In this document: positions 4,136 to 64,000 of the stretch, one piece after another
How the letters are laid out: every line of letters begins with the position of its first letter
Position numbering within the stretch: the first letter of the stretch is position 1
Assembly (NCBI GenBank): GCA_043810355.1
Contig: JBDROB010000075.1
Location: 16,565-80,564 of the forward strand
Source of the DNA: Candidatus Woesearchaeota archaeon
Lineage (GTDB): Archaea; Nanobdellota; Nanobdellia; Woesearchaeales; JAGVYU01
Length of the DNA stretch: 64,000 nucleotides
Reading direction: 5' to 3'
Translations under genes and position numbers: made by a program
The notes under the pieces: generated by a model
What the model was told of the DNA's origin: nothing
Seen by the model: the letters and a program-made list of their open reading frames with translations, nothing else
Databases searched by the model: none

Positions 4136-4483
4136 GGAAGGGAAATTAGCTTACGGTGGCTCTTTGGAGTCATTGAGGAAAGTCCGCCCACCATTCGCTC
4201 TGATTTATCATTGCGATTATAGCCACTCATGGGAATGAGTTGCAGTGATGTGAGGCAACCGCTCAGAAACGATACCGCCTTAAGGTATAGGATGAAATCC
4301 GTGAACCGCTTGGCAACAAGCGCAAGTTAACCGGAAGACGTTCTTAAGGAATGGATGAAACGGCGAGTCCAGGCTGGTGCAAGTAGATTATCTACGCTTA
4401 GTTAAATGCTAACCAGGCTATCAAATAAGGCGCTAAGTCTTTTTTATCAAGGGCCTGACAGAAGGCGGCTTATTCCTTTCCTA
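4136..4483 (+). ncRNA. rnpB: RNase P RNA (archaeal type), about 350 nt. Ends are approximate.
   Basis: CR-I 'GAGGAAAGUCCGCC' at ~4177-4190. CR-V 'ACAGAAGGCGGCUUAUUC' at ~4457-4474. The P4 strands CCGCC/GGCGG pair. P1 pairing 5' GGAAGGGA (4136-4143) with 3' UCCUUUCC (4474-4481). An oligo-T tract follows at 4486-4496. Confidence 0.72.
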
Positions 4484-4766: not shown

Positions 4767-5108
4767 ATGTTTCCTGGCGTTAATCCAAAGATGATGAAGC
4801 AGGCTATGAAAAAGATGGGTATGCAGCAGGTAGATATTGATGCCACTCAAGTTATTATTAAAACACCTGAAAAAAACCTAATAATTGATAATCCTGAAGT
4901 AGCAAAAGTTACAGCAATGGGTCAGGAGACATTCCAGATTTCTGGTGAAGTGAGGGAAGAGGCAATATCATCTGAGCCTGACATAAGTGAAGATGATATC
5001 CAGACAGTGATGGACCAGACAAATTGCTCAGAACAAGAGGCAAAAGAAGCTATTGAAAAATCTGAAGGAGATCTTGCTCAAGCGATTCTTGAACTTAAAA
5101 AAGAATAA
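4767..5108 (+). CDS. nac: Nascent polypeptide-associated complex alpha subunit (NAC domain plus C-terminal UBA domain). The ATG at 4767 is preferred over the GTG at 4758 used by the ORF track.
   Basis: 'MFPGVNPKMMKQAMKKMGMQQVDIDATQVIIKT' NAC signature. C-terminal 'SEQEAKEAIEKSEGDLAQAILEL' is UBA-like. Confidence 0.8.
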   Translation: MFPGVNPKMMKQAMKKMGMQQVDIDATQVIIKTPEKNLIIDNPEVAKVTAMGQETFQISGEVREEAISSEPDISEDDIQTVMDQTNCSEQEAKEAIEKSEGDLAQAILELKKE

Positions 5109-5169
5109 TCTTATTCTATACTCCATATTGCCACAAAATTAATATACTTTCCTCTATATAATAGGTATA

Positions 5170-5670
5170 ATGGAGAAATTCCAGGAGCTTTATGAGCTAT
5201 CTTTGAGCAAGATCAAAATAGCTGACCATATAGCAAATTCTACCTATTCTTTTGTTCAGGATCCTAAGCTTTTGATGAGATCAATAGAGAACATATTCCT
5301 TGCTTTGACATATTCAATGGGTGCTCTCCTTCATTATGAAAGGATGTTCAAAAGGGTTCCTATGTTCAAGGATACTTTTGAGGAAAAGATGATTATTTTG
5401 CAGCACAAAGTCGCGCCAAGATATAATATTGATAGGGAATACATACTCTTGATGAGAAATTTGAAAGAGATCATATTAGAGCATCATAACAGCCCTGTAG
5501 AGTTTGTGAGAGGCAATGAATTGATGATATGTGATGATGATTACAAGATCAAAAAGATTGATCTTGATTTGATCAGAGGTTATATAAGCAAGTCAAAATC
5601 CTTTTTAGATGAGGTTGATTCTATCATGTCAAGAAACAAATCTGTTTTTAGCAGGAAATTACTCCTTTGA
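5170..5670 (+). CDS. Hypothetical protein. Its N-terminal helices are paralogous to the next small gene and possibly HEPN-like.
   Basis: 'IADHIANSTYSFVQDPKLLMRSIENIFLALTYSMGALLHYE' aligns with 'RADHLIFVSLKYTRTVDVIKSIIERLINCLDFSIIALLESYKE' of ORF 5713. Confidence 0.5.
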   Translation: MEKFQELYELSLSKIKIADHIANSTYSFVQDPKLLMRSIENIFLALTYSMGALLHYERMFKRVPMFKDTFEEKMIILQHKVAPRYNIDREYILLMRNLKEIILEHHNSPVEFVRGNELMICDDDYKIKKIDLDLIRGYISKSKSFLDEVDSIMSRNKSVFSRKLLL

Positions 5671-5712
5671 TTAAAGGAAACATTTAATAATAATTAAATC
5701 TTATGATATAAA

Positions 5713-5967
5713 ATGGCTGATATAATAGATAATGAGAATTTGCAGGAGGCCTTTTCTGAACTAAAGCGTGCTGATCATCTTATATTTGTTAGTTTGAAGT
5801 ATACAAGGACTGTTGATGTTATCAAGAGCATAATTGAAAGATTGATCAATTGTCTTGATTTTTCAATCATTGCTCTGCTGGAATCTTATAAGGAAAAAAA
5901 GAAGATCACAGATATTCCCTCTTCGCCTGTGGCAAGGGCAAAAAAAATTAAAAGGGATGATAGATGA
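5713..5967 (+). CDS. Hypothetical small protein (84 aa), HEPN-like N-terminal half.
   Basis: Helical pattern A..L....Y......S..E....ALL typical of HEPN N-terminal helices. Its stop overlaps the next start in ATGATAGATGA. Confidence 0.45.
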   Translation: MADIIDNENLQEAFSELKRADHLIFVSLKYTRTVDVIKSIIERLINCLDFSIIALLESYKEKKKITDIPSSPVARAKKIKRDDR

Positions 5968-6181
5968 TGAGTCAATATTGGAGATCCTTGATACTTATTT
6001 GTTGTGGAGGAAGATTACAAATGCTGAGTTCACAAGGGCAAGGGAGTTCAGAAGGCATGTTACAATGACTGCTATAGTGGATAATGGTGCCATTGAAGTG
6101 AATATTGATGTAATTTATGAATATTATGACAAGACAAAGGAATTTTTTAAGCATATAAAAGATATTATTGAATCATCATGA
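5957..6181 (+). CDS. Hypothetical small protein (74 aa) carrying an Rx4H motif ('REFRRH'). Possibly the C-terminal half of a split or frameshifted HEPN domain.
   Basis: Internal ATG of ORF 5855-6181. The upstream 34 codons of that ORF overlap ORF 5713 in another frame. Its stop overlaps the MinD start (ATGA). Confidence 0.4.
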   Translation: MIDDESILEILDTYLLWRKITNAEFTRAREFRRHVTMTAIVDNGAIEVNIDVIYEYYDKTKEFFKHIKDIIESS

Positions 6182-6951
6182 CAAAATTTATTGTTATTGC
6201 ATCTGGAAAAGGAGGTGTTGGAAAGACAACTGCCTCTTTGAATATTGGAAATGCTCTTACTGACTTTGGCAGGGATGTAATTGTAATAGACGCAAATGTC
6301 TCAAAACCAAATATTGGGCTTCATCTTGGTAGGAATAAATTGGGTTCCTCGCTTAATGATGTATTGAAAGGGAACAAGTCTATTAGGGAAGTAGTTTATA
6401 TGCATCCCTCTGGCTTAAAAGTTGTTCCTAACAGCATTAATATTGAGGATCTTAAGGATGTTGAGATAAAAAACCTTTCAAAATCATTAAAGGAATTGGA
6501 TGGTCTTACTGAAATTGTCATTATTGACGCTGCTCCTGGATTGCATGAAGAGGCTGTAGAGGCAATAAGGGCTGCTGATGAGATAATCATTGTGACAACA
6601 CCTGACTTGATTGCAGTGACTGATGCATTAAAGACAATTCAGATTGCTAAAAAGGTAGGAGTTAAAGTAATTGGAATTATTGTCAATAGGTTTGAAGGAC
6701 ATCCTTCAGATATGAAACCAAGAAATATTGAGCTGATGCTTGAAACTAAGATTATAGGCATTATCCCAGAGGATAAGAATATTAAGGAATCCCTCAGGCT
6801 TAAGCATCCTGTTACTTATTCTCATCCAGAAAGTCAATCTTCAATTAATTTCAAAAAGATTGCTGCATTTCTTATTGGAGAAAAATATGATTCACCTTTA
6901 AAAATAGATTCTCAGTTTGAGAAAATCCTGAAAAAGACTGGAATAAAATAG
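6178..6951 (+). CDS. minD: MinD/ParA-family P-loop ATPase (archaeal MinD-like).
   Basis: Deviant Walker A 'IASGKGGVGKTT'. Switch regions 'IDAAPG' and 'IIVTTPD'. Confidence 0.85.
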   Translation: MTKFIVIASGKGGVGKTTASLNIGNALTDFGRDVIVIDANVSKPNIGLHLGRNKLGSSLNDVLKGNKSIREVVYMHPSGLKVVPNSINIEDLKDVEIKNLSKSLKELDGLTEIVIIDAAPGLHEEAVEAIRAADEIIIVTTPDLIAVTDALKTIQIAKKVGVKVIGIIVNRFEGHPSDMKPRNIELMLETKIIGIIPEDKNIKESLRLKHPVTYSHPESQSSINFKKIAAFLIGEKYDSPLKIDSQFEKILKKTGIK

Positions 6952-8434: not shown

Positions 8435-9106
8435 ATGGGAGATCCAAAAAAATTAAGGAAAAAGTATTCAGGACCAAGTCATCCTTGGAAAAAGGATCGT
8501 ATTGAATCAGAGGCAGTTCTGGTCAAAGAATATGGTCTAAGGAATAAGAAGGAGATTTGGCGTTTAGAATCAAAAATCAAAAATTTCAAGGATCAGGTCA
8601 AGAACCTGAGCGCAAAAAAGACAAATCAGTCTGAGATAGAAAAGAGCAATCTATTAAATAAATTAAGAAGCATAAAAATTCTTTCAGAGACCTCAACTCT
8701 TGAGGATACTTTAAGTTTGACTGTTAAGGACTTGATGGAAAGGCGTCTTCAGACACTGGTTTTTAGAAAGGGTTTGGCCAATTCAGTTAACCAGGCAAGG
8801 CAGTTTATTGTTCACCGTCATGTTTCAATTGGTGACCAAAAGATTTCAGTCCCATCTTATATTGTTCATGTTGATGAGGAGCCTTTGATAAGATTCTCAG
8901 ACAATTCTGCATTAAAAGATGAAGATCATCCTGAAAGAAAAAAGCCTGAAGTTGAAAAAGTCCCTGGGTTGAAGAAAGAGAAACCTATGAGTGATATGAA
9001 AAATAGAAGGCAAGGGCAAAAAAAGGACTTTAAGCATGACAAATTTAAAAAATTGCATAAAAAACAATCTAATAAAGGAAGATCGAAAAAGGATAGTAAG
9101 GAGTAA
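8435..9106 (+). CDS. rps4: 30S ribosomal protein S4 (uS4) with a ~50-aa Lys-rich C-terminal extension.
   Basis: '[42 protein letters not shown]' S4 domain. Confidence 0.9.
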
Positions 9107-9108
9107 AA

Positions 9109-9510
9109 ATGCAAGATAGAAGAAATCTAAGATGGGGAATTGCACACATATATTCTTCATATAATAATACTATAATCCATATTACAGACATAACTGGAAC
9201 AGAAACACTTGCAAGAACTTCAGGAGGAATGGTTGTTAAATCTGACAGGATGGAGTCTTCTCCGACTGCAGCAATGATCGCCTCTAAAAAAGCTGCAGAG
9301 ATAGCAAAAGATAAGGGAATTGATGGTATCCATGTTAAGATAAAGGCTCCTGGAGGTCACAATGGCCCAAATAATCCAGGACCTGGAGCTCAAGCTGCAA
9401 TCAGGGCTTTGTCCAGGATGGGATTGAAGATTGGAATAATTGAGGATGTAACTCCTATACCTCATGATGGTTGCAGGAAAAAAGGCGGTAGGAGAGGGAG
9501 GCGTGTCTAA
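9109..9510 (+). CDS. rps11: 30S ribosomal protein S11 (uS11).
   Basis: '[35 protein letters not shown]...[23 protein letters not shown]'. Confidence 0.9.
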
Positions 9511-9511
9511 A

Positions 9512-10297
9512 ATGGAAATAAGTTTTTTGGGCAAGGATGAAAAACATAACAGGGTATCTTTTATCTTAAAAGGAGCAGATCCTACAATAGCTAACACCAT
9601 TAGAAAAAATATTATTGAAAGTGTTCCAACAATGGCGATTGATGATGTTGAATTTAGAAAAAACAGTTCTGCATTATATGATGAGATAATTGCACACAGG
9701 CTTGGTCTGATCCCTATTAAGACTGATCTGAAAAGTTATGATTTGAAACAAGGATGTAAATGCAAAGGTGAAGGCTGTGCTCGTTGCAGTGTGAAAATGA
9801 CTTTGTCTGAAAAAGGTCCTGGTATTGTTTATGCTTCAAGTATCAAGTCAAAGGATTCTCAGATAAAGCCAATCTTTCCAAAGACTCCTATTGTGAAATT
9901 GATCAAGAATCAGGAATTGGAGTTTGAGGCAACAGCTGTTTTAGGGATTGGAAAAGACCATACAAAATGGTCTCCTGGCCTTGCTTATTACAAATATCTT
10001 CCAATTATTGAGATAAAAGGCAACATTGGTGATCCTGAAAAGATTTGTGAGATATGTCCAGTTGATGTTTATGAAGTAAAGAACAGCAAACTTGTAGTGA
10101 ACAAGGATAAGATTAATGATTGTCATTTGTGCGGTGCTTGTGTTGATATCGAGCCTAATATCAGCATTAATGAGTCAGATAAGGATTTTGTTTTTTATGT
10201 CGAGTCTTGGGGACAGTTATCAAATAAGGATATTGTTGTTAAGGCTTTGGAATTAATGGATGAAAAACTTGATGAATTTGATAAGCTCCTCAAGTAG
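9512..10297 (+). CDS. rpoD: DNA-directed RNA polymerase subunit D (Rpo3) with a 4Fe-4S ferredoxin-like insert. The start is adjusted to the ATG just after the S11 stop.
   Basis: 'MEISFLGKDEKHNRVSFILKGADPTIANTIRKNIIESVPTMAIDDVEF'. Cys cluster 'CEICPVD...CHLCGACV'. Confidence 0.85.
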   Translation: MEISFLGKDEKHNRVSFILKGADPTIANTIRKNIIESVPTMAIDDVEFRKNSSALYDEIIAHRLGLIPIKTDLKSYDLKQGCKCKGEGCARCSVKMTLSEKGPGIVYASSIKSKDSQIKPIFPKTPIVKLIKNQELEFEATAVLGIGKDHTKWSPGLAYYKYLPIIEIKGNIGDPEKICEICPVDVYEVKNSKLVVNKDKINDCHLCGACVDIEPNISINESDKDFVFYVESWGQLSNKDIVVKALELMDEKLDEFDKLLK

Positions 10298-51976: not shown

Positions 51977-52026
51977 AATTGATATGCAATTGAATCTAAG
52001 TTTATAAAATTATTCTAAGAAATATA

Positions 52027-52368
52027 TCATTTTTTCCCATTCTCTTCTTTGCTGATTGCAATCCTCGATACTAGATCATCTGTCTTTTTTTGCAATCTTC
52101 TGACTAATGAATATGTGTGGAAAAGTGTTCCTATTATGATGATGAATCCTAATATTATATAGAAATCAAGAGGCCTCTGCATTGTCAGCACATCTTTTAC
52201 AAAATAGTTCAATTGTGTTGGAAATAATGTGATAAAAATGAATCCTAGCCATAATATTGCCCAGACCAGACCTTCTTTTACAGTGAACTCTTTTCTTTTA
52301 TTGTGCAAGAATGTGATATAAAGCATAAACAATCCGAACAGCACTCCGATTATTTGAATTCCTAGCAT
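52027..52368 (-). CDS. Small membrane protein (DUF2304-like) paired with the adjacent GT2.
   Basis: 3 TM segments. Lies directly downstream of, and 1 nt apart from, the GT2. Confidence 0.5.
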   Translation of the reverse strand: MLGIQIIGVLFGLFMLYITFLHNKRKEFTVKEGLVWAILWLGFIFITLFPTQLNYFVKDVLTMQRPLDFYIILGFIIIIGTLFHTYSLVRRLQKKTDDLVSRIAISKEENGKK

Positions 52369-52369
52369 A

Positions 52370-53035
52370 TTACCTCCTCAATTTCCATAATATCATGTTA
52401 ATCACAATCTTGATTCCATCTATTGCAGTTGTTCCTTTGTAGATGTCTGAATAGATTGTTTGTATTGGGATTTGAGTATATCTCAGCCTTGTCTTTCCTA
52501 AATTTGCAATCATCTCTGATTCCATTGAATAGTCATTTGCATCCCATCTGATCTTTCTGTATGCATCTGCATTATATGCCCTATATCCGCTTTGTGAGTC
52601 AAATAAGTCAATATTATATAAAAACCTTGTAGCAGTATTTATAATGTTGTTTCCGATCTTCATCATCAATGGCATGTCTTTATTAAATTTTCTGAATCCA
52701 AACACAATGTCATTATTCTTTAAGGATTCTAGAAAATTTGGGATCTCTTTTGGATCATGCTGGCCGTCTGCATCAATAAGTATCATTATCTCTCCACCTT
52801 TATTTAGGACAAAGTCACATCCTGTCTTGATTGCAGCTCCTTTCCCTATGTTTATTGGGTGTCTTAGCACAATAGCCTTGTTTTCTTTGGCTATATTATT
52901 GGTTTCATCCCTGCTTCCATCATCAACAACTATAACATTGTCCAGATGTTTTTTAATATTTTTTATTACACTCCCTATATATTTCTCCTCATTATATGCT
53001 GCAATAACTGCATAAACCTTGGATTTGTCTTCCAT
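52370..53035 (-). CDS. GT2 glycosyltransferase (Dpm1-like).
   Basis: 'VYAVIAAYNEEKYIGSVIKNI...IVVDDGSRDET...IDADGQHD'. Confidence 0.8.
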   Translation of the reverse strand: MEDKSKVYAVIAAYNEEKYIGSVIKNIKKHLDNVIVVDDGSRDETNNIAKENKAIVLRHPINIGKGAAIKTGCDFVLNKGGEIMILIDADGQHDPKEIPNFLESLKNNDIVFGFRKFNKDMPLMMKIGNNIINTATRFLYNIDLFDSQSGYRAYNADAYRKIRWDANDYSMESEMIANLGKTRLRYTQIPIQTIYSDIYKGTTAIDGIKIVINMILWKLRR

Positions 53036-53176
53036 AAGAGAATAAAGAATATGTTATTATTTAAAAATTTGATTGTAAAACCTGTTTCTTAAAAAAAAAG
53101 AATATTTAATCAAATCGAATTTTCTAGATCTAAAAATTGACATCATATAGGGTCAATTTTGGTTATTTTTTAATTA

Positions 53177-56100
53177 TTATGCTTCCGTTGTATTAAATTC
53201 TCCACCAATCATATCACTTTCATTTATCATGACATCTTCACTACTATTGATTATTTCAATCTCAATATTTTCAACATTATCAATCCTAGTTGCATTATAT
53301 TCCTCCTCACTGATTTCCTCAATTGTCACTGTTTGCTGGAAAAAAGGATAGACATTCTCCTGTTTTCCTTCCCAGTCAACTTTCCAGACAACTATCCTCT
53401 GTCCCAAGACACTGTTCTCTTCACTGAATTTTTCAAAATGTTTTGTTCCATGCCCATCTAAGAAATATAATTGAGTGAATATGCTGTCAGTCTGCTCGAC
53501 ATTTGTTATGAGCCTTGAATAACCATCCTCAGTCGGTATCATCAGGACACCAAAATCCCCTCCATTCTCATAGTCCTTGGTGATTATTCCAGTCTCATTC
53601 AGTATGACTAATCTCTTAGGTTTCTCTATGCCTTGAGCTGAACTGAATACCAATTCCATTGATGTGGAGTTAAACAGTCCGGCGCCCCCTCCAAACAATG
53701 AGCAGATATACATCCCATCTTCTCCTGGTGTGCATGGATCAATTCCAGATGCATAGCTTGGCCAAGGTGCTGTCCAGTCATTTGCATCCCTTCCAGTTCC
53801 CAATGATTGAATTTCCAAATAAATTGCTTGGGCTTCATCATCTGTCATGTTGAATTCATCTTTTAGGTATTTGACACCTTTGTCCATATCAAGATTATTA
53901 TCTTTTATTGTATTGTACATTGTTGATCTCCTGAAATTCCAGATTCCAAAATGTCCCCAAACTCCGCTTTTTCCTATCATGTCAGATGAGGTTATAAAAT
54001 ATGCTTCCGGAGGCTCACAGTGTGTATATTCCAGTACATTTTCTGCCTGTTCTTCATTAAGCCCATACCCTTTCAATATTCTTCTTGCATCTTCTTTCTC
54101 TAAAACAATTATTTCATAGATTATATCTACACTCTTGTATGTCTCATTTATTATTTTGTCAAGCTCGTCAAATGCATTGTTGCTGCCGCAGTCAAGCATT
54201 CTTAATAATCCTACACTGACATCTTCATCAGATGTAAGGAGTGAATTGCCTACCCAATGGGCCATTGGCGAGTCTTGTGATGTTCCATCAAATGTTACAG
54301 GTCTGTCAGCAATATATTTGAACCAATGCCCGAAATCCCACCATGATGTTATGATTGCATTATTCTCACTCTCAAGCCTTATCTTTTCTAATGAGCTCCA
54401 CCATGCATCTGTCATGCTTGGTATTTCTTGATATGCTGTTGATTGTCCAGCCTGCAGAGGTTTGATAAGGATTATGGATAACAGTACAATGATGACTATT
54501 TGTGTGATTAGTTTGTTGATCTTTAATTCCTTTGATATTATTTTGACAACATACTGGTATATTATTCCCAAGGCAAGTCCTACTGCAATTGAAAATGCAG
54601 GGACAAATAACAATATGAATCTTATTCCTTTTATTCCAGAATATACTGTTGCAGCAAACCAAAGAACTAGCAGGATGCTGTATTTGATATAAGTCAATCC
54701 ACCATCCTTTTCTTTGATCAAAGCGATTACTCCTTTTATAAAAACAAGCACTATTCCTAAAACACTCAGGTAAAATAAGAATGCACCTCCTATATTCCCG
54801 ATCACTTCAGGAAATGATGATTCATTCTGCTCAGCAACTGTTGTGAATACATTTGGCCAGACAGATGTTGCCCCAATTTGCTTTAATGTGACAAATCCCA
54901 TAGGTTTTTCAACTACTGTATAGAACTCATTGAATCCTAGAAACATAGTGATAAAAATGCCTGAGAATAGTATGAACATAATTATGATGATAATATTATT
55001 TTTAACAAATTTTAATTTAAATATCTGGTTGATTTTTATCCCTTTTTTATAATTTAACATTAAGTAAACTGCTAGATAGCCAACAATATATATTATTGTA
55101 GATATTATCACAAGATAGAATATATACCACCATCCTCCTGCCCATGCAAAACCAAGAAGGCCGACTAAAAAGCCTGATAAGGCAGAATATATTATTTTCT
55201 TTTTTAGATCTTTCTCTTCAAACGCAATTAAAAAGAACCATGCTATATATAATGGCAATGTCACATTGTAAGCATCTGTATCTGAAAACCCGCCCATTGT
55301 CCTGTTGATAAATGCGCTGTGGATTGCAATTAAAAATCCAGCTACAAATCCTCCATAATTCCCTGCAAGCCTTCTTGTGATAAAAAATCCAGGGATCACT
55401 GCTAAAGCACTGATAAGAATTGGTATAAGGAAAATAAAACTCATTAGATCTAGGTCTCTGTTGAAAAACTGGAATGCTTTAAATAAATAAGCAGAAAGAT
55501 AAGCATGGAACATGTCAGGTACAATAAATCTTCCTAATGGTGCAAACATGTGATTATCAAATGGCTTTCCATCCCTTAGCTCGTCTCCTGGATGCCCATT
55601 GTTAATTATATTTCTTGCATGTCTTGTCCAATAATAAGGGTCAATTGCCAATAGGTAAGTGAATTCTCCGATAACCTCTCCTTTGCTGTTTGTGATATCT
55701 CGCCTTAATCTTGATTTAAACTGGTTTGATGAAGCTGATATTGCATTATCAACTTCCTTTTTGTTTTCACTCAGGATTTTTTCAAACTCTTTCTCAATTA
55801 TTTTTGCTTTATTCTCATCAGGAAGATTTGGATATTCATTATTGACTTTATTCTCAACCTGGGCTCTTATCCCATTATATATATTGTCTCTTGCCCAAAC
55901 ATCTGTTATCGGCAATATTGCTGACTGATATCTAAGATTAGCGCTGAAATAGACACAGAACAGTAGTGAAAATATGATAAGGATTGTTGGAATGATCCAA
56001 GGTTTATTTTTTATATACCCATAACCTTTTTTTATTGATTTTGTCACATCAGAAAATTCTTCATCCTTTTCTTCATCTTTGCTTTCTTCCTTTTTGTTCC

Positions 56101-56476
56101 CCTTTTTGAAAATATTTTTTATACCGGAAAAATCAATGTTGAAATCCTCATCTTTCTCTGCCTTTTCATTATCTTCAACAAAATCTTTCTTTTCCTTGAT
56201 AATTTGCATTTTCTTCTCAGCTTCTTCAGTCTGCCTTTTCTCCTTATTGTAGCCAGGTTCTTCAGCTTTCTCACTAATATTTTCAGCCTCTAATCTCCTT
56301 AGCTCTTCTTTTTTCCTCTCTATCTCTTCATGGATATCTTTTTTATCTTTTTTCTTCTCATCCAGAGATTTATCATCATCGCTAAATGATTTACCTACTT
56401 TCTTGAAGAATCCTTTTACTTTTTTTATATCAAATGAAATCTCTTCATCATCAAAATCATCATCCAAAGACATCAC
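53177..56476 (-). CDS. aglB: Oligosaccharyltransferase AglB (STT3 family) with an unusual ~165-aa Lys/Glu/Asp-rich N-terminal cytoplasmic extension. GTG at 56476 and ATG at 56473 are both candidate starts.
   Basis: 'ITSWWDFGHWFKY' (WWDYG motif). First-loop 'LLAIDPYYWTRHARN'. 13 TM segments plus a large C-terminal domain. Confidence 0.85.
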   Translation of the reverse strand: MMSLDDDFDDEEISFDIKKVKGFFKKVGKSFSDDDKSLDEKKKDKKDIHEEIERKKEELRRLEAENISEKAEEPGYNKEKRQTEEAEKKMQIIKEKKDFVEDNEKAEKDEDFNIDFSGIKNIFKKGNKKEESKDEEKDEEFSDVTKSIKKGYGYIKNKPWIIPTILIIFSLLFCVYFSANLRYQSAILPITDVWARDNIYNGIRAQVENKVNNEYPNLPDENKAKIIEKEFEKILSENKKEVDNAISASSNQFKSRLRRDITNSKGEVIGEFTYLLAIDPYYWTRHARNIINNGHPGDELRDGKPFDNHMFAPLGRFIVPDMFHAYLSAYLFKAFQFFNRDLDLMSFIFLIPILISALAVIPGFFITRRLAGNYGGFVAGFLIAIHSAFINRTMGGFSDTDAYNVTLPLYIAWFFLIAFEEKDLKKKIIYSALSGFLVGLLGFAWAGGWWYIFYLVIISTIIYIVGYLAVYLMLNYKKGIKINQIFKLKFVKNNIIIIIMFILFSGIFITMFLGFNEFYTVVEKPMGFVTLKQIGATSVWPNVFTTVAEQNESSFPEVIGNIGGAFLFYLSVLGIVLVFIKGVIALIKEKDGGLTYIKYSILLVLWFAATVYSGIKGIRFILLFVPAFSIAVGLALGIIYQYVVKIISKELKINKLITQIVIIVLLSIILIKPLQAGQSTAYQEIPSMTDAWWSSLEKIRLESENNAIITSWWDFGHWFKYIADRPVTFDGTSQDSPMAHWVGNSLLTSDEDVSVGLLRMLDCGSNNAFDELDKIINETYKSVDIIYEIIVLEKEDARRILKGYGLNEEQAENVLEYTHCEPPEAYFITSSDMIGKSGVWGHFGIWNFRRSTMYNTIKDNNLDMDKGVKYLKDEFNMTDDEAQAIYLEIQSLGTGRDANDWTAPWPSYASGIDPCTPGEDGMYICSLFGGGAGLFNSTSMELVFSSAQGIEKPKRLVILNETGIITKDYENGGDFGVLMIPTEDGYSRLITNVEQTDSIFTQLYFLDGHGTKHFEKFSEENSVLGQRIVVWKVDWEGKQENVYPFFQQTVTIEEISEEEYNATRIDNVENIEIEIINSSEDVMINESDMIGGEFNTTEA

Positions 56477-56516
56477 CTTGTCAATAACTAATTAAATTGT
56501 TTTATCAATTGTCTGA

Positions 56517-56552
56517 TTAATGGTTTAATTAATGGTTTAATTAATGGTTTAA
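56517..56552. repeat. Three perfect tandem copies of the 12-mer ttaatggtttaa, 40-76 nt upstream of the aglB start (minus-strand promoter region).
   Basis: Direct reading. Confidence 0.7.
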
Positions 56553-56628
56553 TTGTTTCCCCTCAGTATATATAATAGGATAGGGAATTATTCTGCTTTT
56601 ATAAAAGTTTGTTTTAGATTAGTATTTG

Positions 56629-57729
56629 TCAAATAATGAATTTAACAAAAGAAATCAGCCTGGGCTCTTTCAGCAATAGTTTAAATACCATTTTGCTTGG
56701 CTCATCCCTGTCGATTGTCTCCAATATTCTCTTCATTTTTGGCTTGTCAAAATATCCAATCAGCTTGTTCCAGTCATCTTCATCAAATTTATCCATTATT
56801 TTCCTCATATACTTATGTAGGGATAGGTCAAAAAACAATCTCTTTCTCAATTCTCTTGAGAATTTCTTTTCTGTTCCAATGCATTCAGCCAATATCTCAG
56901 CTGATCTCATGCCCTGTATTATGCCTCCTGCTGTTGTCGCTTTGACCATTCCAGCTGCATCACCTATAATATATGTGTTGTCATCAGATACCTTCAGTTT
57001 TTTGTCAAACTTGGGGATCAGACCCCCTTGTGTCTCGATTATCTTGCTCCTAAAATCTTTTCCAATCTTTCTCTCTAAAAAATCATCCAATATTTTCCTT
57101 ATACCCAATGATCCAATTATGCCTACGCGAGCAATTTCCTTATTCTCAGGGACAATCCATGCAAATGTTCCTAAATATGGATAGAATTCAATCTTATTTT
57201 CATTTTTATGTTCAATCCTGTATTGAAGGCTTGTCCAGTATTCTCTTTTTTTGTTTCCAAGAGATTTTGCTATAATGCTTTGCGGCCCGTCTGCCCCGAT
57301 TATATTATCACTTTTTCTTTCAATCTTTTCCTCAATAATCTCATTTCTGTCTAATTTTCTTATCGACAATATATCATCTTTAAAATCTTCGATTTTATGG
57401 TCAAGAAATATTTTTACTCCCTCTTTTTCAGCTTTTTTTGACAGAAACTTGTCAAATCTCTCCCTGTCAAGGATCAGATTTGCTTCTCTAAATCTTATTT
57501 TCAGAGATTTTCCATTTGGAGCAAATATCTCAACATCATTGATTCTATTGGCAACACACTCATCAGGGACATCAATTAATTTTGATATTGTATTTGTCAC
57601 AATCCCAGTGCATTGTACCGGTTTTCCAATCTCCTTGTTTTTCTCAAATATCTCAACCTTATACCCCTTTTTTGCAAGCAGATATCCTGCAAAATTTCCA
57701 ACAGGTCCAGCTCCAACAATTGATATCAT
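56629..57729 (-). CDS. Geranylgeranyl reductase family FAD-dependent oxidoreductase (digeranylgeranylglycerophospholipid reductase-like).
   Basis: 'MISIVGAGPVGNFAGYLLAKKGYKVEIFEK' FAD-binding N-terminus. 'GDAAGMVKATTAGGI'. Confidence 0.85.
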   Translation of the reverse strand: MISIVGAGPVGNFAGYLLAKKGYKVEIFEKNKEIGKPVQCTGIVTNTISKLIDVPDECVANRINDVEIFAPNGKSLKIRFREANLILDRERFDKFLSKKAEKEGVKIFLDHKIEDFKDDILSIRKLDRNEIIEEKIERKSDNIIGADGPQSIIAKSLGNKKREYWTSLQYRIEHKNENKIEFYPYLGTFAWIVPENKEIARVGIIGSLGIRKILDDFLERKIGKDFRSKIIETQGGLIPKFDKKLKVSDDNTYIIGDAAGMVKATTAGGIIQGMRSAEILAECIGTEKKFSRELRKRLFFDLSLHKYMRKIMDKFDEDDWNKLIGYFDKPKMKRILETIDRDEPSKMVFKLLLKEPRLISFVKFII

Positions 57730-57945
57730 GAAACAGAGAGAATGACTAATAATATTTAATTCTAATTAATTTAATAATCAAAAACCTCTTATTAAAAAAA
57801 ACCAGAAAGTATCTATTATAAAATAGTTATATCATATTAGTACTTTATAATAGTATCAATACAAAAGATTTAAATATGTAATAGATATTTCTACCATACA
57901 ATTAGATAATAATTTTTGAAAAACAACTTTTAGAAGGGGATATAT

Positions 57946-60390
57946 ATGACTAATAAAATTAAAGAAATCAAACAAGATTATGTTTCTAGAGCAACATACA
58001 AGGATTTGGATGCAACTCAAGCAGATGCAATTTATAATGCATTTCAGGCAACAACACATAACAGTGAAGGGAAAAAACTTACTCTTCAAGAAAGAAGAAA
58101 ATCAGTTGCTGACGAATTTGGTGTCAAGTATGGTACTGTCGGAACAGTTGCAAGATACCAAGGAAGAGATTCCTCACAATTAGATAGGTCTGTTTCTCAA
58201 TTATCAGAAACAGATATTGAAAAAGCTCGTCAGAGATATAAACATTCTGATGATTCTGTTGATACAATTTTAGGAGACCTAAATCTTACTGCAAAGGCTT
58301 TTTATTCAGGAGTACTTGAAGGTTTTGATTATAGGAGAAGTGATGATAAGCCTCGTCTGGCAAGGATGGCAAAAGCTCGGCAAAAAGCTAATGGATATAC
58401 CACTTCTCCAGCTGACATAGCTGAAGTTGTTGATGCACCAGAAGATCAGCCTGCTTTCAGATATCTTGCTGAACCTCAAGAAAGTTCTGCTAAACCAGGA
58501 AATCAAACAAAAAGTATAGAATCAAAATCAATTGTTGACTTTAGTTATGATAATCCAGATCAATCTGTTGTTGACACTAGATTAATAGGTCATTTTTTAG
58601 TTTCAAAAGCTGCTTCAGCAGAAAGGCATGGGGATCATGGACCAGAAAGTGGACCAGTAACTCAAGCAAAGCCTTTAGAAGCTGTTGTTGGAGAAGCTAA
58701 TCCAGTTTATGCAGGGGGAAGAGTTCCTGATGATTCATCAAGGTCCAAATATGTTTCTGATGTTAGAACTCCTGAAGTTACAATGCATGCACCAGATGGT
58801 CCAAGAGCTGAGGGAAGAGGTCCTTCTGATGATTCTCATGCTCGAGGTGATGCTAGTGGCCATGATGACAGAGTTATTTTAGGAGAAGATCATAGTTCTA
58901 GACCTGTTGAAGAACCAAGGTATTCAGGCAGTGGCTCAGGAGATGGTTCAGGTGGAGACAGTTCATTACCTCCAGAAAGTACAGAAAGACCAGCCAGAAT
59001 TTGGTATCAAACTTGGAAAGGTAAATTAGTATCAGGTTTGACTGCTGCTGCAATGCTTGCAGTTTCATTTGGTGGCGGATGGTTTGCTCGAGGAATGTAT
59101 AATCCAAGTCAAGCTGCTGCTGGATCTCTAGATCCTGCTCCTATAGCTGCTGAAGCGCCTGAAGTACCTACACATCCATTAGGAGGAGTCATTCCAGGTT
59201 TCCCAGATCCTAATTCAATTGAAGATCATGTAAAAAGCCAATATAATGGAGAAGGTGGATTTGATTTAAGAAAGCACTTATGGGAGACTCTTGTTCCAGG
59301 TTCAGAAGATTCTGGAAGAAAGCCTTATACAGGAAGTTCAGAACAGAATGAGGCATTCTTAATGTTTTTGAGGACTTTGAATCCTGATATGGTTAAGGCT
59401 GCAGTTGCTTCTTACGATGCACCAGAAGAACCTGCTGCTCCAGTTGTCCAACCGGCACCAATACCTGCAGAGAACCCAACTGTAGCACCTGTTGCACAGT
59501 CAGCACCAGCAGCTCCATTGGCAGGTTTCCCAGATCCTAATTCAATTGTTGACTGGCTGACAAGTAATTATAATGATGCTGATCAAGGATTAAGAGCATA
59601 TTTATGGGAAGCTTTTGCTCCTGAACCAATCCAAAGAAGTTTAGGGGATGAATATCAAGGAAGATCATTGACACCTGAACAAAGGCAATTACAAAATAAT
59701 TGGTTACTTGGATTCTTAAAAATGAGAAATGATCAAAGACCTCAAGATATTACTGAAGCGATTGCTGATTATAGTCTTGGAATAGAAAGTGGAGCGCCTT
59801 TAGAGGCTTATGAAGGATCAGGTTCAGAAGAGCAACCAACTCTGGCACCTTTAGAGGAGATTACAGTAGGTGGACCTGCCGAAGTTATTGTTCCTCCAGC
59901 AGTTTTAACTGCAATCCAGATTCAAAATATTGGAGACATGTTTGAGATCCCTTTCAGAGGAACTTCAATTTATAATTTGAGTCAGATTGATTCAAGTGAT
60001 AATAGGCTACCAAGCAATCCAACACCTGTTTCAGCTTTAGTGGGTAACTATGATAGTAATGCTGACGGAAATATTGACAGTGTTGCTGAGTTGAGCACAT
60101 TCATTTTAGGATTGACAACAAGAGGTGGGCTTGATTCCCCTGTTCCAGGTGAGTCAGATGAATCTTTTGTTAGGCTTGTAGCTAATGCTGGTTTTGGACC
60201 AGATGTCGCTTCTCAATTAAGGTCTGCATTAAATACAGAGGAAGTCTCAAATGAAGAATTGAATAGGGCTTCAGAAGTTGCTTTAAGATTAGGGGCTGCT
60301 ATTCAGACAGAGACTCCATTATATGATAATGGCACAGATTTAGTGATTGCAGAACCAGAAATCGCAATTAAATATTTTAATGGATTTTAG
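57946..60390 (+). CDS. Membrane-anchored protein. It has an N-terminal cytoplasmic region with an HTH-like segment, one TM helix, and an extracellular domain with two ~90-aa 'GFPDPNSI' repeats and a dockerin/EF-hand-like Ca-binding loop. GC is higher than the surroundings.
   Basis: 'LTLQERRKSVADEFGVKYGTVGTVARY' HTH-like. TM 'LVSGLTAAAMLAVSFGGGWFA'. Repeats 'GVIPGFPDPNSIEDHV...' and 'APLAGFPDPNSIVDWL...'. 'YDSNADGNIDSVAELSTFILGL'. Confidence 0.55.
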   Translation: MTNKIKEIKQDYVSRATYKDLDATQADAIYNAFQATTHNSEGKKLTLQERRKSVADEFGVKYGTVGTVARYQGRDSSQLDRSVSQLSETDIEKARQRYKHSDDSVDTILGDLNLTAKAFYSGVLEGFDYRRSDDKPRLARMAKARQKANGYTTSPADIAEVVDAPEDQPAFRYLAEPQESSAKPGNQTKSIESKSIVDFSYDNPDQSVVDTRLIGHFLVSKAASAERHGDHGPESGPVTQAKPLEAVVGEANPVYAGGRVPDDSSRSKYVSDVRTPEVTMHAPDGPRAEGRGPSDDSHARGDASGHDDRVILGEDHSSRPVEEPRYSGSGSGDGSGGDSSLPPESTERPARIWYQTWKGKLVSGLTAAAMLAVSFGGGWFARGMYNPSQAAAGSLDPAPIAAEAPEVPTHPLGGVIPGFPDPNSIEDHVKSQYNGEGGFDLRKHLWETLVPGSEDSGRKPYTGSSEQNEAFLMFLRTLNPDMVKAAVASYDAPEEPAAPVVQPAPIPAENPTVAPVAQSAPAAPLAGFPDPNSIVDWLTSNYNDADQGLRAYLWEAFAPEPIQRSLGDEYQGRSLTPEQRQLQNNWLLGFLKMRNDQRPQDITEAIADYSLGIESGAPLEAYEGSGSEEQPTLAPLEEITVGGPAEVIVPPAVLTAIQIQNIGDMFEIPFRGTSIYNLSQIDSSDNRLPSNPTPVSALVGNYDSNADGNIDSVAELSTFILGLTTRGGLDSPVPGESDESFVRLVANAGFGPDVASQLRSALNTEEVSNEELNRASEVALRLGAAIQTETPLYDNGTDLVIAEPEIAIKYFNGF

Positions 60391-60402
60391 CCAGGTGATC
60401 AA

Positions 60403-61779
60403 ATGAAAGGATATGATATGACCAGAAGGGGATTTTTAGCAGCAGCAGCAACTGCATTAGCAGGATGTGCAACAACATATGATCAATCTCAACTATCAGG
60501 ACGACATCCAGTTCCTGGACAGAGAGAACCTACTCCTATAGGAGATCAAGCTTTGTCTTTAGAGGCAAAGATTCCAGAAGGGGATGTTGCAGTTCTTTAT
60601 GATTATGTCAAGGATCACCTTCCAGGTGGAGACAGATATTTTGTTCCGTTCATTGAGCAAGGAATTGCACAAGCCTTTGCAGGTTATGTTCCAGCGCCGG
60701 CAAAAGCTGGAGTAAGAAATATTAATTTTGGAGACAATGAAAGGACTGGTTTTCTTTCAAAACCTGAATCTGCAGCACTTTACACTTATTTGTTTGAGAG
60801 ATTTATGGAAGATGTCCAGCAGGTTGCTCATCTTTCAATTAATCCAGAGAGGACAAATGGTGTTACAGACGTTTTTGTTTATCATAATGGGCCAAGGATG
60901 CCGAGCATTAATTACACTTCAAGAGAAGTGAAAGGTTGGAATAAGAAGACAACTGAGAAAGATACTGTTTACAATTCAATTGATCTTTGTTTTACAAATG
61001 CTGTTGAAGTCAGGCATAAGGTAAGGAATTATAGGGGTCCTGTTGAGTTTTTTATCAATGCAGCTTTGCAGGGATATAATACAACAGCTTCTCTTGGTGA
61101 GCCAATTATTGGTGTCGCTGGTTATACTGCAGGTGCAGCTACAAGAGGGGCATTGACATGGCTTTTCCACAAAAAGGATGAGCAAGATGCATTCTATGAT
61201 GCTAATGTTGATCTTGGTTGGGGTTCCCAGAATCTTGGACCAGCTCAGAAGATGTGGGAGACATTGAGCAATCATAATATGGAAAGCCCAGTTGTCTATC
61301 TGGCGCCTATTGAGTCAAAACCAGGAAGTGTAGATACAATGTTGATGGTTCTTGCAAATAATCCTAATTTTGCAGTACAACCTTTTCCAACACCAAATTA
61401 TGATCCAGAGACTGGAAGAGTCATGGGTATGAATATTGTTTCACCTCCACAGTATGGTGATAATTTTGCAAAGAATCTTGTTATAAGTATGTTGGGAGAA
61501 ATGGCAGATGCATATGTTAGGGGCTTGTTGATTGAAGATTTGATCCTTGATAAGCTTGAGGATGACAAGCAATTGCTGCCTTTTGGAGTTCCGATTCCAA
61601 TTACAAGGATTTTACCTTTGATAATGCCTTTGCCGATTCCATTCTGTCCTAGACCAAGTCCAATGATAGGTGGAGGTTGGTTTGGAGGCGGTGCTTTTGG
61701 AGGAGCAGGTTTAGGTGGAGCTGGACTTTTAGGAGGAGGATTTACTGGTGGAGGAGCGTTAATTCCAGGTCCATTATAA
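60403..61779 (+). CDS. Secreted Tat lipoprotein with a bacterial-type lipobox and a Gly-rich C-terminal tail. Function unknown.
   Basis: 'MTRRGFLAAAATALAGCATT' has the twin-arginine and the L-A-G-C lipobox. C-terminal 'GGGWFGGGAFGGAGLGGAGLLGGGFTGGGA'. Confidence 0.6.
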   Translation: MKGYDMTRRGFLAAAATALAGCATTYDQSQLSGRHPVPGQREPTPIGDQALSLEAKIPEGDVAVLYDYVKDHLPGGDRYFVPFIEQGIAQAFAGYVPAPAKAGVRNINFGDNERTGFLSKPESAALYTYLFERFMEDVQQVAHLSINPERTNGVTDVFVYHNGPRMPSINYTSREVKGWNKKTTEKDTVYNSIDLCFTNAVEVRHKVRNYRGPVEFFINAALQGYNTTASLGEPIIGVAGYTAGAATRGALTWLFHKKDEQDAFYDANVDLGWGSQNLGPAQKMWETLSNHNMESPVVYLAPIESKPGSVDTMLMVLANNPNFAVQPFPTPNYDPETGRVMGMNIVSPPQYGDNFAKNLVISMLGEMADAYVRGLLIEDLILDKLEDDKQLLPFGVPIPITRILPLIMPLPIPFCPRPSPMIGGGWFGGGAFGGAGLGGAGLLGGGFTGGGALIPGPL

Positions 61780-61848
61780 TTTCATTTTTTATTTTCATTT
61801 AATCAAAATAAACAAAATCATAAACAAGACAATAGGGGGGATTTATTT

Positions 61849-64000
61849 ATGAAAAAAATACTATTTATTATGCCATTTTTAGCTGTTCTTTTAGCAGCAA
61901 ATGTTTTTGCAGTAGCGGACATAACATTTAATTTTAATGTCAACAATGTTGAATCAAAGTTCTATACTTGTCTCGACATTAACTGTGATACTGTCAGCTC
62001 AAGTCCATTCTCATATTCTGGATCAACCTCTAATGGGCATATGCTGATCTCATTCCCTTCATGTCTATTGTCCCCATTTGGTTATGCAGGTTATTTCATT
62101 GTCCCAGCTACAAATCCAGCTGATACTGGTTATATACCTATTGAAGGTATTGCTACATTCCACACTTTTTGCAATCCTGGACATGCTTCAGGAAGTGTTG
62201 ATATTGATTTTGACAGAGTTGCAAATTGCGCCTCTACAATTGATGAATTCACAATCACAAATGATCTTTATGCTAATGAGCCTTTGCAGGTTAATGTTTC
62301 TGCTTCATTAGATGCAGCAACTCATTCAGCTTTCCAAGACGCTCATAATAATGTAGGATATATCCCTCTAGCATATAGGGATATCTATTATTCTGCAGAT
62401 ACTACTGTATCTTTGACAATCAAGAAAGATGGTCAGGTTGTTAATCAGCAGATGACTTATTTTGACGCTGCTCATGGTAACCCAATCTTTATGGATGAAG
62501 TTAAAGATGTTGAATATTCATGGGTCCCTGCTGAAGACGGACAATATGAGGCAACTGTAAGGACTGTTGTTACAGACAATCAATGTTCCTCAAATATCCC
62601 TTTGTCATCAAGTAAATTCTTTGGTGTGCTTCCAGGAAGGCCTACAAATGAATGTTACACAATCATTAATGGTTTGAGGACAACTGACCCTTATCCAGTT
62701 GCAGGAGACACTGTAACAGTTGAGTATAACAAGATAAGCAATTATGCTAATCCACAACATGCTTTGACATCAGTTCCTACTGATATTGATTATGAAGTGA
62801 GAAATTCAGCTTATCAGATTATTTTATCTGGTTCAGCTTCACTTCCAGCAAATCCTAATGAAGTTGATCCAACAACACATTCATTCCAATGGGTTGCTCC
62901 TTATGAGGATGTTTTTACAATGGAAGTGGCAGGAACTGCTGACTCACCTCTTTGTGACGGAAAGCCTAATCCAACTGAGACTGCTCAGGAAGAGATTTAT
63001 GTTGCTCCAGCTCCAGTCTATGAGGTTACTTTCATAATCTCAGATGATATGACTGCAGCAAGAATCCAAGGTGCAACTGTTTCATCTAATGGTCAGACAG
63101 CTGTAACTGATTCAAATGGTGTTGCTGTTATCGGTGGATACGTTAATGGTCACTATACATATGATGTTACTCATCCACAATACCTACCAATTGAAGGAGA
63201 ATTTGACATAACAAATGCAGATGCCACTGTTTCAAGAGCTATGCACAAGGCAAATACACCTCCAATTATAACTAATATTCCAGATGTTTCATTCCCTGAA
63301 GACACAGTGCATAATTCTCTGGATCTTGACCTTTATGTTCAGGATGAAGAGGATCTTGATGCTGATCTATCATGGACATCTAATCAATTGCCTAATGTTG
63401 GTGTATCAATCAATCCAACAACTCATATTGTTACATTTACACCTAGTCCAGGATTTAATGGACCAGCAGGAACAGTAACATTCACAGTTCAAGATACAGG
63501 TGGATTAACAGATTCAGATGCAATTTCAGTGACTGTCACTCCTGTTAATGATGCTCCAACAATCAGTGGATTGCCTGATAAGACATTGCAGGAAGATGCA
63601 TCTTTAAATAATGCTTTTAACTTGAATGATTTTGCATCTGATCCAGATCATTCTGATTCTTTATTGACTTACTCTTTGACAACTATAACTAATGGAAATA
63701 AATGTGGAGTTACAATTGATGGGAATGATAATATTGACATAAATCCTGATTTTAATTTTAACGGAATATGTGATGTTACTGTTAGAGTTGAGGATCCTTT
63801 AGGAGCTTCTGACACAGATACTTTTAGAGTTACTGTCACTCCAGTTAATGACGCTCCTGTTATTGGTTCATTACCTGATCAGACTCTTGCAGAAGACACA
63901 ACAAAGCCAAATGCGTTTAATCTTAATAATTTTGCTAGTGATCCTGATAATACTGATGCGCAATTGACTTATACTTTAACATCAGTTTCAAATACTAATC
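61849..64000 (+). CDS. Large secreted surface (adhesin-like) protein, 3'-partial because it runs off the window. It has a signal peptide and tandem Ig/cadherin-like 'VTVTPVNDAP' repeat domains. Not in the ORF track because there is no stop in the window.
   Basis: Manual translation from the ATG at 61849 stays open to base 64000. 'MKKILFIMPFLAVLLAANVFAVAD' signal. Repeats 'VTVTPVNDAPTISGLPDKTLQEDAS...' and 'VTVTPVNDAPVIGSLPDQTLAEDTT...'. Confidence 0.65.
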   Translation, partial: MKKILFIMPFLAVLLAANVFAVADITFNFNVNNVESKFYTCLDINCDTVSSSPFSYSGSTSNGHMLISFPSCLLSPFGYAGYFIVPATNPADTGYIPIEGIATFHTFCNPGHASGSVDIDFDRVANCASTIDEFTITNDLYANEPLQVNVSASLDAATHSAFQDAHNNVGYIPLAYRDIYYSADTTVSLTIKKDGQVVNQQMTYFDAAHGNPIFMDEVKDVEYSWVPAEDGQYEATVRTVVTDNQCSSNIPLSSSKFFGVLPGRPTNECYTIINGLRTTDPYPVAGDTVTVEYNKISNYANPQHALTSVPTDIDYEVRNSAYQIILSGSASLPANPNEVDPTTHSFQWVAPYEDVFTMEVAGTADSPLCDGKPNPTETAQEEIYVAPAPVYEVTFIISDDMTAARIQGATVSSNGQTAVTDSNGVAVIGGYVNGHYTYDVTHPQYLPIEGEFDITNADATVSRAMHKANTPPIITNIPDVSFPEDTVHNSLDLDLYVQDEEDLDADLSWTSNQLPNVGVSINPTTHIVTFTPSPGFNGPAGTVTFTVQDTGGLTDSDAISVTVTPVNDAPTISGLPDKTLQEDASLNNAFNLNDFASDPDHSDSLLTYSLTTITNGNKCGVTIDGNDNIDINPDFNFNGICDVTVRVEDPLGASDTDTFRVTVTPVNDAPVIGSLPDQTLAEDTTKPNAFNLNNFASDPDNTDAQLTYTLTSVSNTN

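Follow-up and report, generated by a model that had tools for sequence, protein, structure and literature searches.

A lipoprotein gene within a conserved surface operon

A stretch of 64,000 nucleotides from a Candidatus Woesearchaeota archaeon (assembly GCA_043810355.1, contig JBDROB010000075.1), termed here the window, was analyzed around one open reading frame (ORF) of its + strand, which spans exactly 60403..61779 and encodes a protein of 458 amino acids with the N-terminal residues MKGYDMTRRGFLAAAATALAGC. The identical protein is listed at NCBI as 'MAG: hypothetical protein ABII01_07115 [Candidatus Woesearchaeota archaeon]' (MAG, metagenome-assembled genome), on a contig of 81 kb. The gene is real, and its pattern of an N-terminal lipoprotein signal and a C-terminal glycine-rich tail is not a product of chance. 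With somewhat better than even confidence, we favour the reading that it encodes a lineage-specific surface lipoprotein of Woesearchaeota, placed second in a conserved four-gene surface operon beside the N-glycosylation (AglB) cluster and acting by the mechanism proposed further below.

The gene order around the lipoprotein is fixed and runs AglB (-), a geranylgeranyl-reductase-like gene (-), a bitopic membrane protein termed here the upstream protein (+), the lipoprotein (+), a giant protein (+) and a CARDB-like anchored protein (+). The comparison covered the loci with enough flanking DNA, namely L001/L002, L003, L004, L005 and the P0004 contig, and an identical operon order was recovered by a scan anchored on the giant-protein N-terminus in L008, a Woesearchaeota MAG from groundwater that is more distant and richer in GC. 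The stop of the upstream ORF falls at 60390, a mere 12 nt short of the lipoprotein start codon, and a terminator scan between the operon genes found none. A reading of the DNA made from its letters alone (hereafter the sequence-only reading) had paired the lipoprotein with the preceding gene as one unit, and this pairing is borne out by the 12-nt gap, the constant order in every related locus and the joint variation of the two genes described below.

The protein at position 2 of L008 (479 amino acids, 8552-9991 of JACQNC010000009.1) starts MTRRDALRVGLYGFGAALLGGC and carries an arginine-pair (RR) motif with a lipobox (TRRDAL...LLGGC), a C-terminal hydrophobic helix and a Gly-rich end, and beyond the signal it has no detectable homology to the family (hhalign probability 1%). 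At L008, the architecture is kept and the sequence replaced.

A small family restricted to Woesearchaeota

An exhaustive HMMER search of 1.84 billion protein representatives with residues 23-420 as query returned five relatives only, P0002-P0006 (E 2e-43 to 9e-12; 25-33% identity), and a metagenome scan added one more, L006, as the seventh member. Two members, the window protein and one relative, are named Woesearchaeota, and the relatives that can be placed lie in Woesearchaeota MAGs or in metagenome contigs with matching gene order. The word-indexed homologue search across 5.8 billion clusters recovered the query alone and, when run with the profile, two of the six known members; the N-terminal domain of the upstream protein gave no match in the word-indexed search. 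The viral contigs scanned gave no member, and the family profile found no match in the genome contigs, the latter null result implying that the window MAG is not a GTDB representative.

All members share a common plan, consisting of a signal with an invariant lipobox Cys, a domain of ~380 amino acids, a Pro-rich hydrophobic stretch and a Gly-rich tail. The RR motif is present in five members, three of which (P0003, P0004 and L006) carry SRRGFLK, the full consensus of twin-arginine translocation (Tat) signals.

Export signal and lipidation site

The signal region of the window protein reads MKGYDMTRRGFLAAAATALAG up to a Cys at which cleavage and lipidation are predicted (Cys22). Within it, the Tat motif T7-R8-R9-G10-F11-L12 (R8-R9 codons at 60424-60429) is followed by a lipobox, L19-A20-G21-C22 (60457-60468), that fits [L/V/I][A/S/T/V/I][G/A/S]C at the end of the hydrophobic h-region. 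The earlier description of a Tat-type RR signal with a canonical lipobox in an AT-rich archaeon (window GC content ~0.33) therefore stands. The h-region comprises 12 Ala-rich residues with a mean Kyte-Doolittle hydropathy of 1.64, and the uncharged run after the RR extends over 17 residues, G10 to Y26, where Tat signals call for at least 13. Agreement with the Tat consensus (S/T)-R-R-x-F-L-K is found at 5 of 6 defined positions. Cys22 and Arg9 are unchanged across the six-member family alignment, and the lipobox Cys recurs in L006 and in the positional equivalent of L008. A lipobox filter applied to ORFs of at least 80 amino acids found no second signal-plus-lipobox ORF in the 64-kb window, and a TatFind-like filter run on both strands of ~180 kb of window and related loci picked the lipoprotein and its positional equivalents only.

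At the motif level the protein would belong to the class of Tat substrates, while by hidden Markov model (HMM) it is borderline. The NCBIfam model TAT_signal_seq (TIGR01409) scores it at 15.2 bits against a cut-off of 16.7, and the Pfam model TAT_signal (PF10518) matches two of the six family members at E=0.001 and not the window protein. The subthreshold TIGR01409 score tells against Tat export, as does a phmmer search with E. coli TatA and TatC sequences, which found neither in the 64-kb window and ~100 kb of related loci. So do P0005 and P0006, two members of a second allele class (class B) that are devoid of RR and whose sequences indicate that the RR export route is not essential to the family.

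These same three observations would fit a protein exported by the general secretory (Sec) pathway, in which the RR is an ordinary positive n-region and the genome possesses no Tat system. Such a route is also the usual one by published survey, since Halobacteria are predominantly Tat-dependent and all other archaea primarily route their lipoproteins via Sec (PMC12462473). We nevertheless judge Sec export improbable. It sits poorly with the consensus agreement of the window protein, with the full SRRGFLK of three relatives and with the recurrence of the RR motif in the unrelated L008 equivalent. Family h-regions are short, Ala-rich and weakly hydrophobic (Kyte-Doolittle 1.4-1.6), and the strict filter gave no other such N-terminus in ~180 kb.

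The statement that Tat lipoproteins are mainly haloarchaeal agrees with the same survey, in which they form a minority outside Halobacteria (PMC12462473), and a Tat-type lipoprotein outside the haloarchaea can be regarded as a fair and mildly unusual observation. Should Tat export be confirmed, the family would provide a documented example, from DPANN archaea, of lipoproteins routed through Tat.

Native origin of the gene

The lipoprotein gene is a native Woesearchaeota orphan. An archaeal RNase P RNA lies at 4136-4481 (118 bits), the 64-kb window yielded no tRNA genes, and the archaeal markers of the window include AglB/STT3 and the geranylgeranyl-reductase-like flavoprotein. Local GC at the operon rises to 0.39-0.41 against ~0.33 elsewhere, because the abundance of Ala, Gly, Pro and Asp in the encoded proteins raises GC at the first two codon positions (GC1 and GC2) to unusually high values. 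At the third codon position (GC3), the three operon genes of the window (57946-64000) show 0.16, 0.25 (lipoprotein) and 0.19, compared with 0.318±0.042 for the 43 other ORFs; this low GC3 might reflect expression-linked codon choice.

The sequence-only reading had taken the gene pair for a bacterial-style module, a sensor with its lipoprotein, gained by horizontal transfer. As weighed here, the transfer would be recent, with bacteria or haloarchaea as the source. The RR-plus-lipobox signal does resemble bacterial and haloarchaeal Tat lipoproteins, local GC is raised, and the amino-acid composition is unlike that of neighbouring genes. We give such a transfer almost no credence. The search of 1.84 billion representatives brought up no bacterial homologue, and neither there nor in the 5.8 billion clusters and the viral contigs was a homologue found outside the Woesearchaeota-type operon; the relatives that can be placed lie in Woesearchaeota MAGs or have the archaeal neighbours AglB and the reductase-like gene. 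Synteny is kept across divergent Woesearchaeota, L008 included, GC3 lies under the host mean, and the rise in GC is driven by amino-acid composition. Moreover, lipobox proteins and the lipidation enzyme AliA are reported to be prevalent in DPANN, AliA 'with some gaps' (PMC12462473), and a lipobox is therefore no bacterial mark. The bacterial-style and horizontally acquired part of the earlier claim is left unsupported on these grounds, and RR plus lipobox in an archaeon that is not halophilic cannot be taken to mean transfer from bacteria. An origin from a provirus or mobile element was likewise rejected on the basis of no PHROG or viral matches and of boundaries, described next, that lie inside coding sequence.

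A hypervariable or replaced two-gene cassette

The window was compared mainly with L003, the Woesearchaeota MAG GCA_043805595.1. By blastn the two are collinear and 85-91% identical at the nucleotide level over 52002-58437 and 61692-64000, and between these flanks a single 141-bp island aligns (58672-58812). In 200-bp bins, identity amounts to 80-90% up to 58399, drops to 34-59% (near random) over 58400-61799 and returns to 91-95% beyond. The replaced segment of about 3.25 kb contains the linker, transmembrane (TM) helix and ectodomain of the upstream protein together with the lipoprotein up to residue ~430. Its left edge falls in the cytoplasmic linker of the upstream protein and its right edge inside the Gly tail, where DNA similarity to L003 returns, and both proteins end GGGFTGGGAL[I/N]PGP. 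At the protein level, AglB is 88%, the reductase-like protein 84% and the giant protein 93% (717 residues) identical between the two genomes, with 24% for the lipoprotein; the N-terminal domain of the upstream protein retains 75% amino-acid identity over 158 residues (80-90% at the nucleotide level).

The second close pair, L001 and L004, presents a like pattern, with 62% identity for the reductase-like protein, 83% for the giant protein and 21% for the lipoprotein. Here too DNA similarity returns in the tail-coding DNA, GGGVGGGMGTGGG[V/I] being common to both.

The lipoproteins fall into two classes of alleles. Class A, of the RR type, comprises those of the window, L004, L005, P0004 and L006, and class B, without RR and with shared insertions, those of L001 and L003, so that each close genome pair holds one allele per class. 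Neighbour-joining of the lipoprotein groups L001 with L003 in 200/200 bootstraps, whereas both flanking genes group the window with L003 and L001 with L004, again in 200/200. The conflict between the lipoprotein tree and the trees of its flanks implies cassette exchange or ancient dimorphism. In its simplest reading, the two-gene cassette would have been exchanged by homologous recombination within the conserved arms, or would have been kept as an old polymorphism.

A history without exchange was also weighed, in which the lipoprotein and the ectodomain evolve at high speed under diversifying selection, or old tandem paralogues were lost differentially and leave an apparent dimorphism. The gene is intrinsically fast, within-class lipoprotein identity being ~30% where the adjacent giant protein shows 56-59%, and elevated non-synonymous variation has been reported for hypothetical surface proteins of Nanoarchaeota (PMC6142677); nor does a donor allele near that of the window occur among those sampled. 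We regard this history as quite unlikely. The class tree conflicts with both flanks at full bootstrap support, indels are shared within the classes, and identity falls in a step from ~85% to near-random DNA inside coding sequence at both ends. Differential loss of paralogues would still require in-frame recombination at the same arms, and two copies occur at no locus.

Two further ways of generating variation were set aside. A silent-cassette system of the pilE/vlsE type is ruled out, as no spare or silent copies of the cassette were found in the window, L001 or L003. Mutagenesis of the diversity-generating retroelement type would not account for the pattern either, for the divergence spans whole proteins and is not confined to a C-terminal variable repeat.

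Mature domain, proline-rich stretch and glycine-rich tail

In the AlphaFold2 (AF2) model, the mature part has a linker of ~30 amino acids and an alpha/beta core, followed towards the C-terminus by a long helix (residues 355-385). This model, built on a 6-sequence alignment, has a mean predicted local distance difference test (pLDDT) value of 51 and a predicted template modelling (pTM) score of 0.54, with core blocks at 65-88. Foldseek comparison of this model with PDB and BFVD returned nothing below E=0.08, searches of PDB by sequence and by family profile gave no match for the lipoprotein, and no family was found for it in Pfam, NCBIfam or PHROGs. Among the invariant residues, Gly, Pro and hydrophobic ones prevail, and S119, E215, N354 and two Thr are the sole polar ones; from this we infer a role in binding or structure and not in catalysis.

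The hydrophobic segment 391-420 holds 10 prolines within its 30 residues and probably forms an extended spacer instead of crossing the membrane as a helix. The tail that follows has a Gly share of ~40% over 38 amino acids (42% over the last 45 residues) and ends ...GGGALIPGPL, without basic residues. The Gly-rich C-terminus noted in the sequence-only reading is thus present as described, and the sorting function proposed for it found no match in Pfam or NCBIfam. A signal for archaeosortase or exosortase of the PGF-CTERM kind was searched for among the NCBIfam '-CTERM' models, none of which matched at E<=1, and with no basic cluster and a hydrophobic stretch of 10 prolines a PGF-CTERM identity of the tail was ruled out. 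Glycine-zipper models gave no Pfam match, whether the whole protein was queried or, for five members, the C-terminal ~100 residues by themselves (E<=10), and an outer-membrane lipoprotein of the glycine-zipper type (Rick_17kDa_Anti, SlyB-like) was rejected for this reason.

As a separate observation, the Gly-rich region of the class-A proteins P0003, P0004 and L006 is followed by a further conserved extension, ...PTRREILFYGQRRNA or a similar sequence, which is missing from the window protein; the C-termini concerned lie at about 4010-4067 in L005 and about 1400-1457 in L006.

The other members of the operon

As listed in Table 1, a TATA-box-like element precedes the operon. It lies in the AT-rich intergenic DNA from which the reductase-like gene (-) and the operon (+) diverge and which is 90% identical to that of L003.

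Table 1. Features of the operon in the window, with the fourth gene as located in related loci
Feature	Position	Strand	Basis or remark
TTTAAATA, archaeal TATA-box-like element, putative promoter	57870..57877	+	~70 nt upstream of the first operon gene; read from sequence
Upstream partner, 814-aa bitopic membrane protein	57946..60390	+	ORF; positional homologues in related loci
Conserved N-terminal cytoplasmic domain of the upstream protein, residues 1-164	57946..58437	+	Left conserved arm; possibly helix-turn-helix-like
Hypervariable/replaced cassette, ~3.25 kb	58438..61690	+	blastn and sliding identity against L003
Shine-Dalgarno-like AGGTGAT	60393..60399	+	Precedes the lipoprotein start; read from sequence
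Lipoprotein gene, class A (RR type)	60403..61779	+	Member of a small Woesearchaeota-restricted family
Predicted signal peptide: Tat motif and lipobox	60403..60468	+	Motif reading, HMM scores, filters, family alignment
Mature globular part, residues 23-390	60469..61572	+	AF2 model; Foldseek, sequence and profile searches
Hydrophobic Pro-rich segment LLPFGVPIPITRILPLIMPLPIPFCPRPSP, residues 391-420	61573..61662	+	In every family member
Gly-rich tail MIGGGWFGGGAFGGAGLGGAGLLGGGFTGGGALIPGPL, residues 421-458	61663..61776	+	From ~61690 part of the conserved right arm of the cassette
Third operon gene, Sec-signal giant adhesin-like protein	61849..64000, past window end	+	tandem-95, Big_9, cadherin-like repeats
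Fourth operon gene	L003 16066-17379; L001 20159-21457; L008 11885-13132		Cross-locus comparison

In the upstream protein, a disordered linker connects the cytoplasmic N-terminal domain to a TM helix (residues 361-381; 59026-59088), beyond which lies the ectodomain; no Pfam, NCBIfam or PHROGs family was found for this protein. Its positional homologues measure 638-865 amino acids across all related loci, and 716-865 is the range in the loci with sufficient flanks used to compare gene order. The ectodomain repeats GFPDPNSI[E/V]D...L[R]..LWE at 59197-59232 and 59524-59559 (residues 418 and 527), with no Pfam match for the repeat, and similar S[IV]VD.L...G motifs were noticed in the L004 and L005 orthologues. 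Helix-turn-helix (HTH) matches of the N-terminal domain are weak (HTH_7, E=0.038 in two of four members; HTH_psq, E=0.0023 in one of four), and no winged-helix model matched it in the Pfam scan. Its AF2 single-sequence model (pLDDT 53) brings up many HTH and homeodomain proteins in Foldseek, all at E>1. A role of the upstream protein as sensor is weakly suggested by these data.

The giant protein varies from 1417 to 2777 amino acids across loci and carries Big_9, He_PIG and cadherin-like repeats; the full-length L003 orthologue (1417 amino acids; Big_9, Cadherin_5, He_PIG) is without a C-terminal TM segment. The fourth gene encodes a Sec-signal protein of ~415-437 amino acids with FixG_C, NPCBM_assoc and DUF11/CARDB-type immunoglobulin (Ig)-like domains and a C-terminal TM anchor. 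This gene is conserved between L001 and L003, and the cytoplasmic end of its product (...FNKLKGDE..., final TYY) is strikingly conserved, the distant L008 included. The fourth-gene protein is a candidate anchor for the anchor-less giant protein.

Proposed function

In the mechanism that we favour, the precursor would be exported by its RR signal, probably through Tat as the motif of class A suggests, and would then be lipidated and cleaved at Cys22 by a pathway of the AliA/AliB type (arCOG02177/02178), as can be presumed from the lipobox and the literature. An alpha/beta domain of ~400 amino acids would be left tethered to the membrane, continued by the Pro-rich extended spacer and the Gly-rich tail. 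The cassette of ~3.3 kb displays the pattern expected if it were swapped wholesale between close genomes by homologous recombination, with the 5' part of the upstream gene and the Gly-tail-coding DNA as arms, or if ancient alleles were kept. Joint variation of the upstream ectodomain and the lipoprotein makes it most likely that the two associate extracellularly as an allele-specific pair. The Gly tail may be the interface to the invariant apparatus, as it tracks the conserved giant adhesin and not the lipoprotein body. More speculatively, the pair could serve as a variable surface for recognition or evasion, in contact with host cells or in escape from viruses, and the cytoplasmic, possibly DNA-binding, domain of the upstream protein may relay a signal.

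Apart from the points on export given above, several observations weigh against this reading. The poor structure model (pLDDT 51) and the missing fold match lend support to no biochemical function. That the lipoprotein contacts the upstream ectodomain or the giant protein is suggested by linkage and co-variation only. The nearest sampled allele is 30-33% identical, and no donor for a recent exchange was identified. Conservation of the tail could also be a by-product of where recombination breakpoints lie.

The same architecture would suit a purely structural tether, whose lipid anchor, globular domain, Pro spacer and Gly tail would keep the giant adhesin, or S-layer-like proteins of the operon, at constant spacing above the membrane; its variability would then follow incidentally from weak constraint. 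No family member departs from this architecture, which extends to the non-homologous L008 protein. The giant protein encoded downstream has no membrane anchor of its own, the tail varies along with it, and the operon adjoins AglB and a large glycosylation cluster. A strut, however, is not expected to be replaced along with the ectodomain of its neighbour while the proteins that it would hold stay 93% identical. A tether of this kind is accordingly seen as unlikely, albeit with some weight of its own.

Should the favoured reading of an exchanged surface pair be carried further, the cassette could be a di- or polymorphic recognition locus of DPANN, serving docking to a host or partner or the distinction of self from non-self. 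The allele-specific ectodomain-lipoprotein pair would be displayed on the conserved giant-adhesin scaffold, its allele classes being kept by balancing selection and reshuffled through homologous recombination, with the tethered HTH-like domain converting contact into transcription. This extension is offered as a doubtful, low-probability conjecture.

Hardly anything is known of host recognition by DPANN archaea or of the roles of their abundant predicted lipoproteins. The present analysis yields a bounded 3.3-kb cassette with conserved arms, set within a conserved adhesin operon beside AglB, two deep allele classes of which even the export signals are distinct (Tat versus non-RR), and a small orphan family fit for the prediction of cognate and non-cognate pairs and for population tests in metagenomes. 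What is new here is the replaced two-gene segment, lipobox proteins in DPANN being already known.

Comparison with known systems

Haloarchaeal Tat lipoproteins, for instance HVO_B0139 and HVO_1705 of Haloferax volcanii, and the AliA/AliB-dependent lipobox proteins (PMC12462473, PMC2945643) resemble the window protein in the S/T-R-R-x-F-L motif, the short Ala-rich h-region, the L-A-G-C lipobox with its conserved Cys and the archaeal host. They differ in host, the window coming from an AT-rich DPANN archaeon that is not a halophile, for which Sec is the route reported as usual. The mature domain is also unrelated to the described substrates, part of the family is non-RR, and Tat export and lipidation are predicted in the present case.

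Among hypervariable archaeal surface modules, the closest published analogue would be VARTIG of Thermococcales, for which roles in self/non-self distinction or conflict were proposed and whose authors found no counterpart outside Thermococcales (PMC8416519). In both, an archaeal surface module includes a giant Ig-repeat protein, and one segment is hypervariable, apparently via recombination between lineages. The variable part of VARTIG is the C-terminal Ig domain of the large protein together with variable downstream genes, whereas the Ig-repeat protein of the operon is 93% conserved through residue 717 and it is the upstream bitopic protein and the lipoprotein that vary. No sequence relationship connects VARTIG with the window cassette.

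In pairs of the ToxR/ToxS type, a membrane-tethered one-component regulator is co-transcribed with an extracytoplasmic partner. The operon is alike in that a bitopic protein, whose cytoplasmic N-terminal domain possibly binds DNA and is joined by a single TM helix to an outer domain, is directly followed by the gene of an exported, membrane-attached partner. It is unlike them in that neither the ToxR winged-helix domain nor ToxS has a homologue in it, DNA binding being only hinted at, and in that the partner is a 45-kDa lipoprotein and the pair is hypervariable within an adhesin operon. By this likeness of topology, the idea of a sensor plus partner put forward in the sequence-only reading is kept as possible.

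Polymorphic surface-lipoprotein loci, such as ospC of Borrelia, exist as deep allele classes moved by recombination. The locus resembles ospC as a single-copy surface lipoprotein with very divergent classes, a tree discordant with the genome and conserved flanks, and differs in the DPANN host, the two-gene cassette, the classes with distinct export signals and a far deeper divergence (24-30% amino-acid identity).

Genes flanking the operon

Upstream of the operon, a long run of envelope and glycosylation genes extends over 17761-56476 of the window and includes a B12-binding radical SAM protein, a PMT_2 mannosyltransferase-like protein, two MatE/Polysacc_synt flippases, DUF6541 and YfhO-like membrane proteins and AglB; GyrA is located at 126-2819. 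Between AglB and the reductase-like gene, L003 contains two extra genes without Pfam family (4769-6449) that are absent in the window, and L001 contains a polyprenyl synthase (5033-6100).

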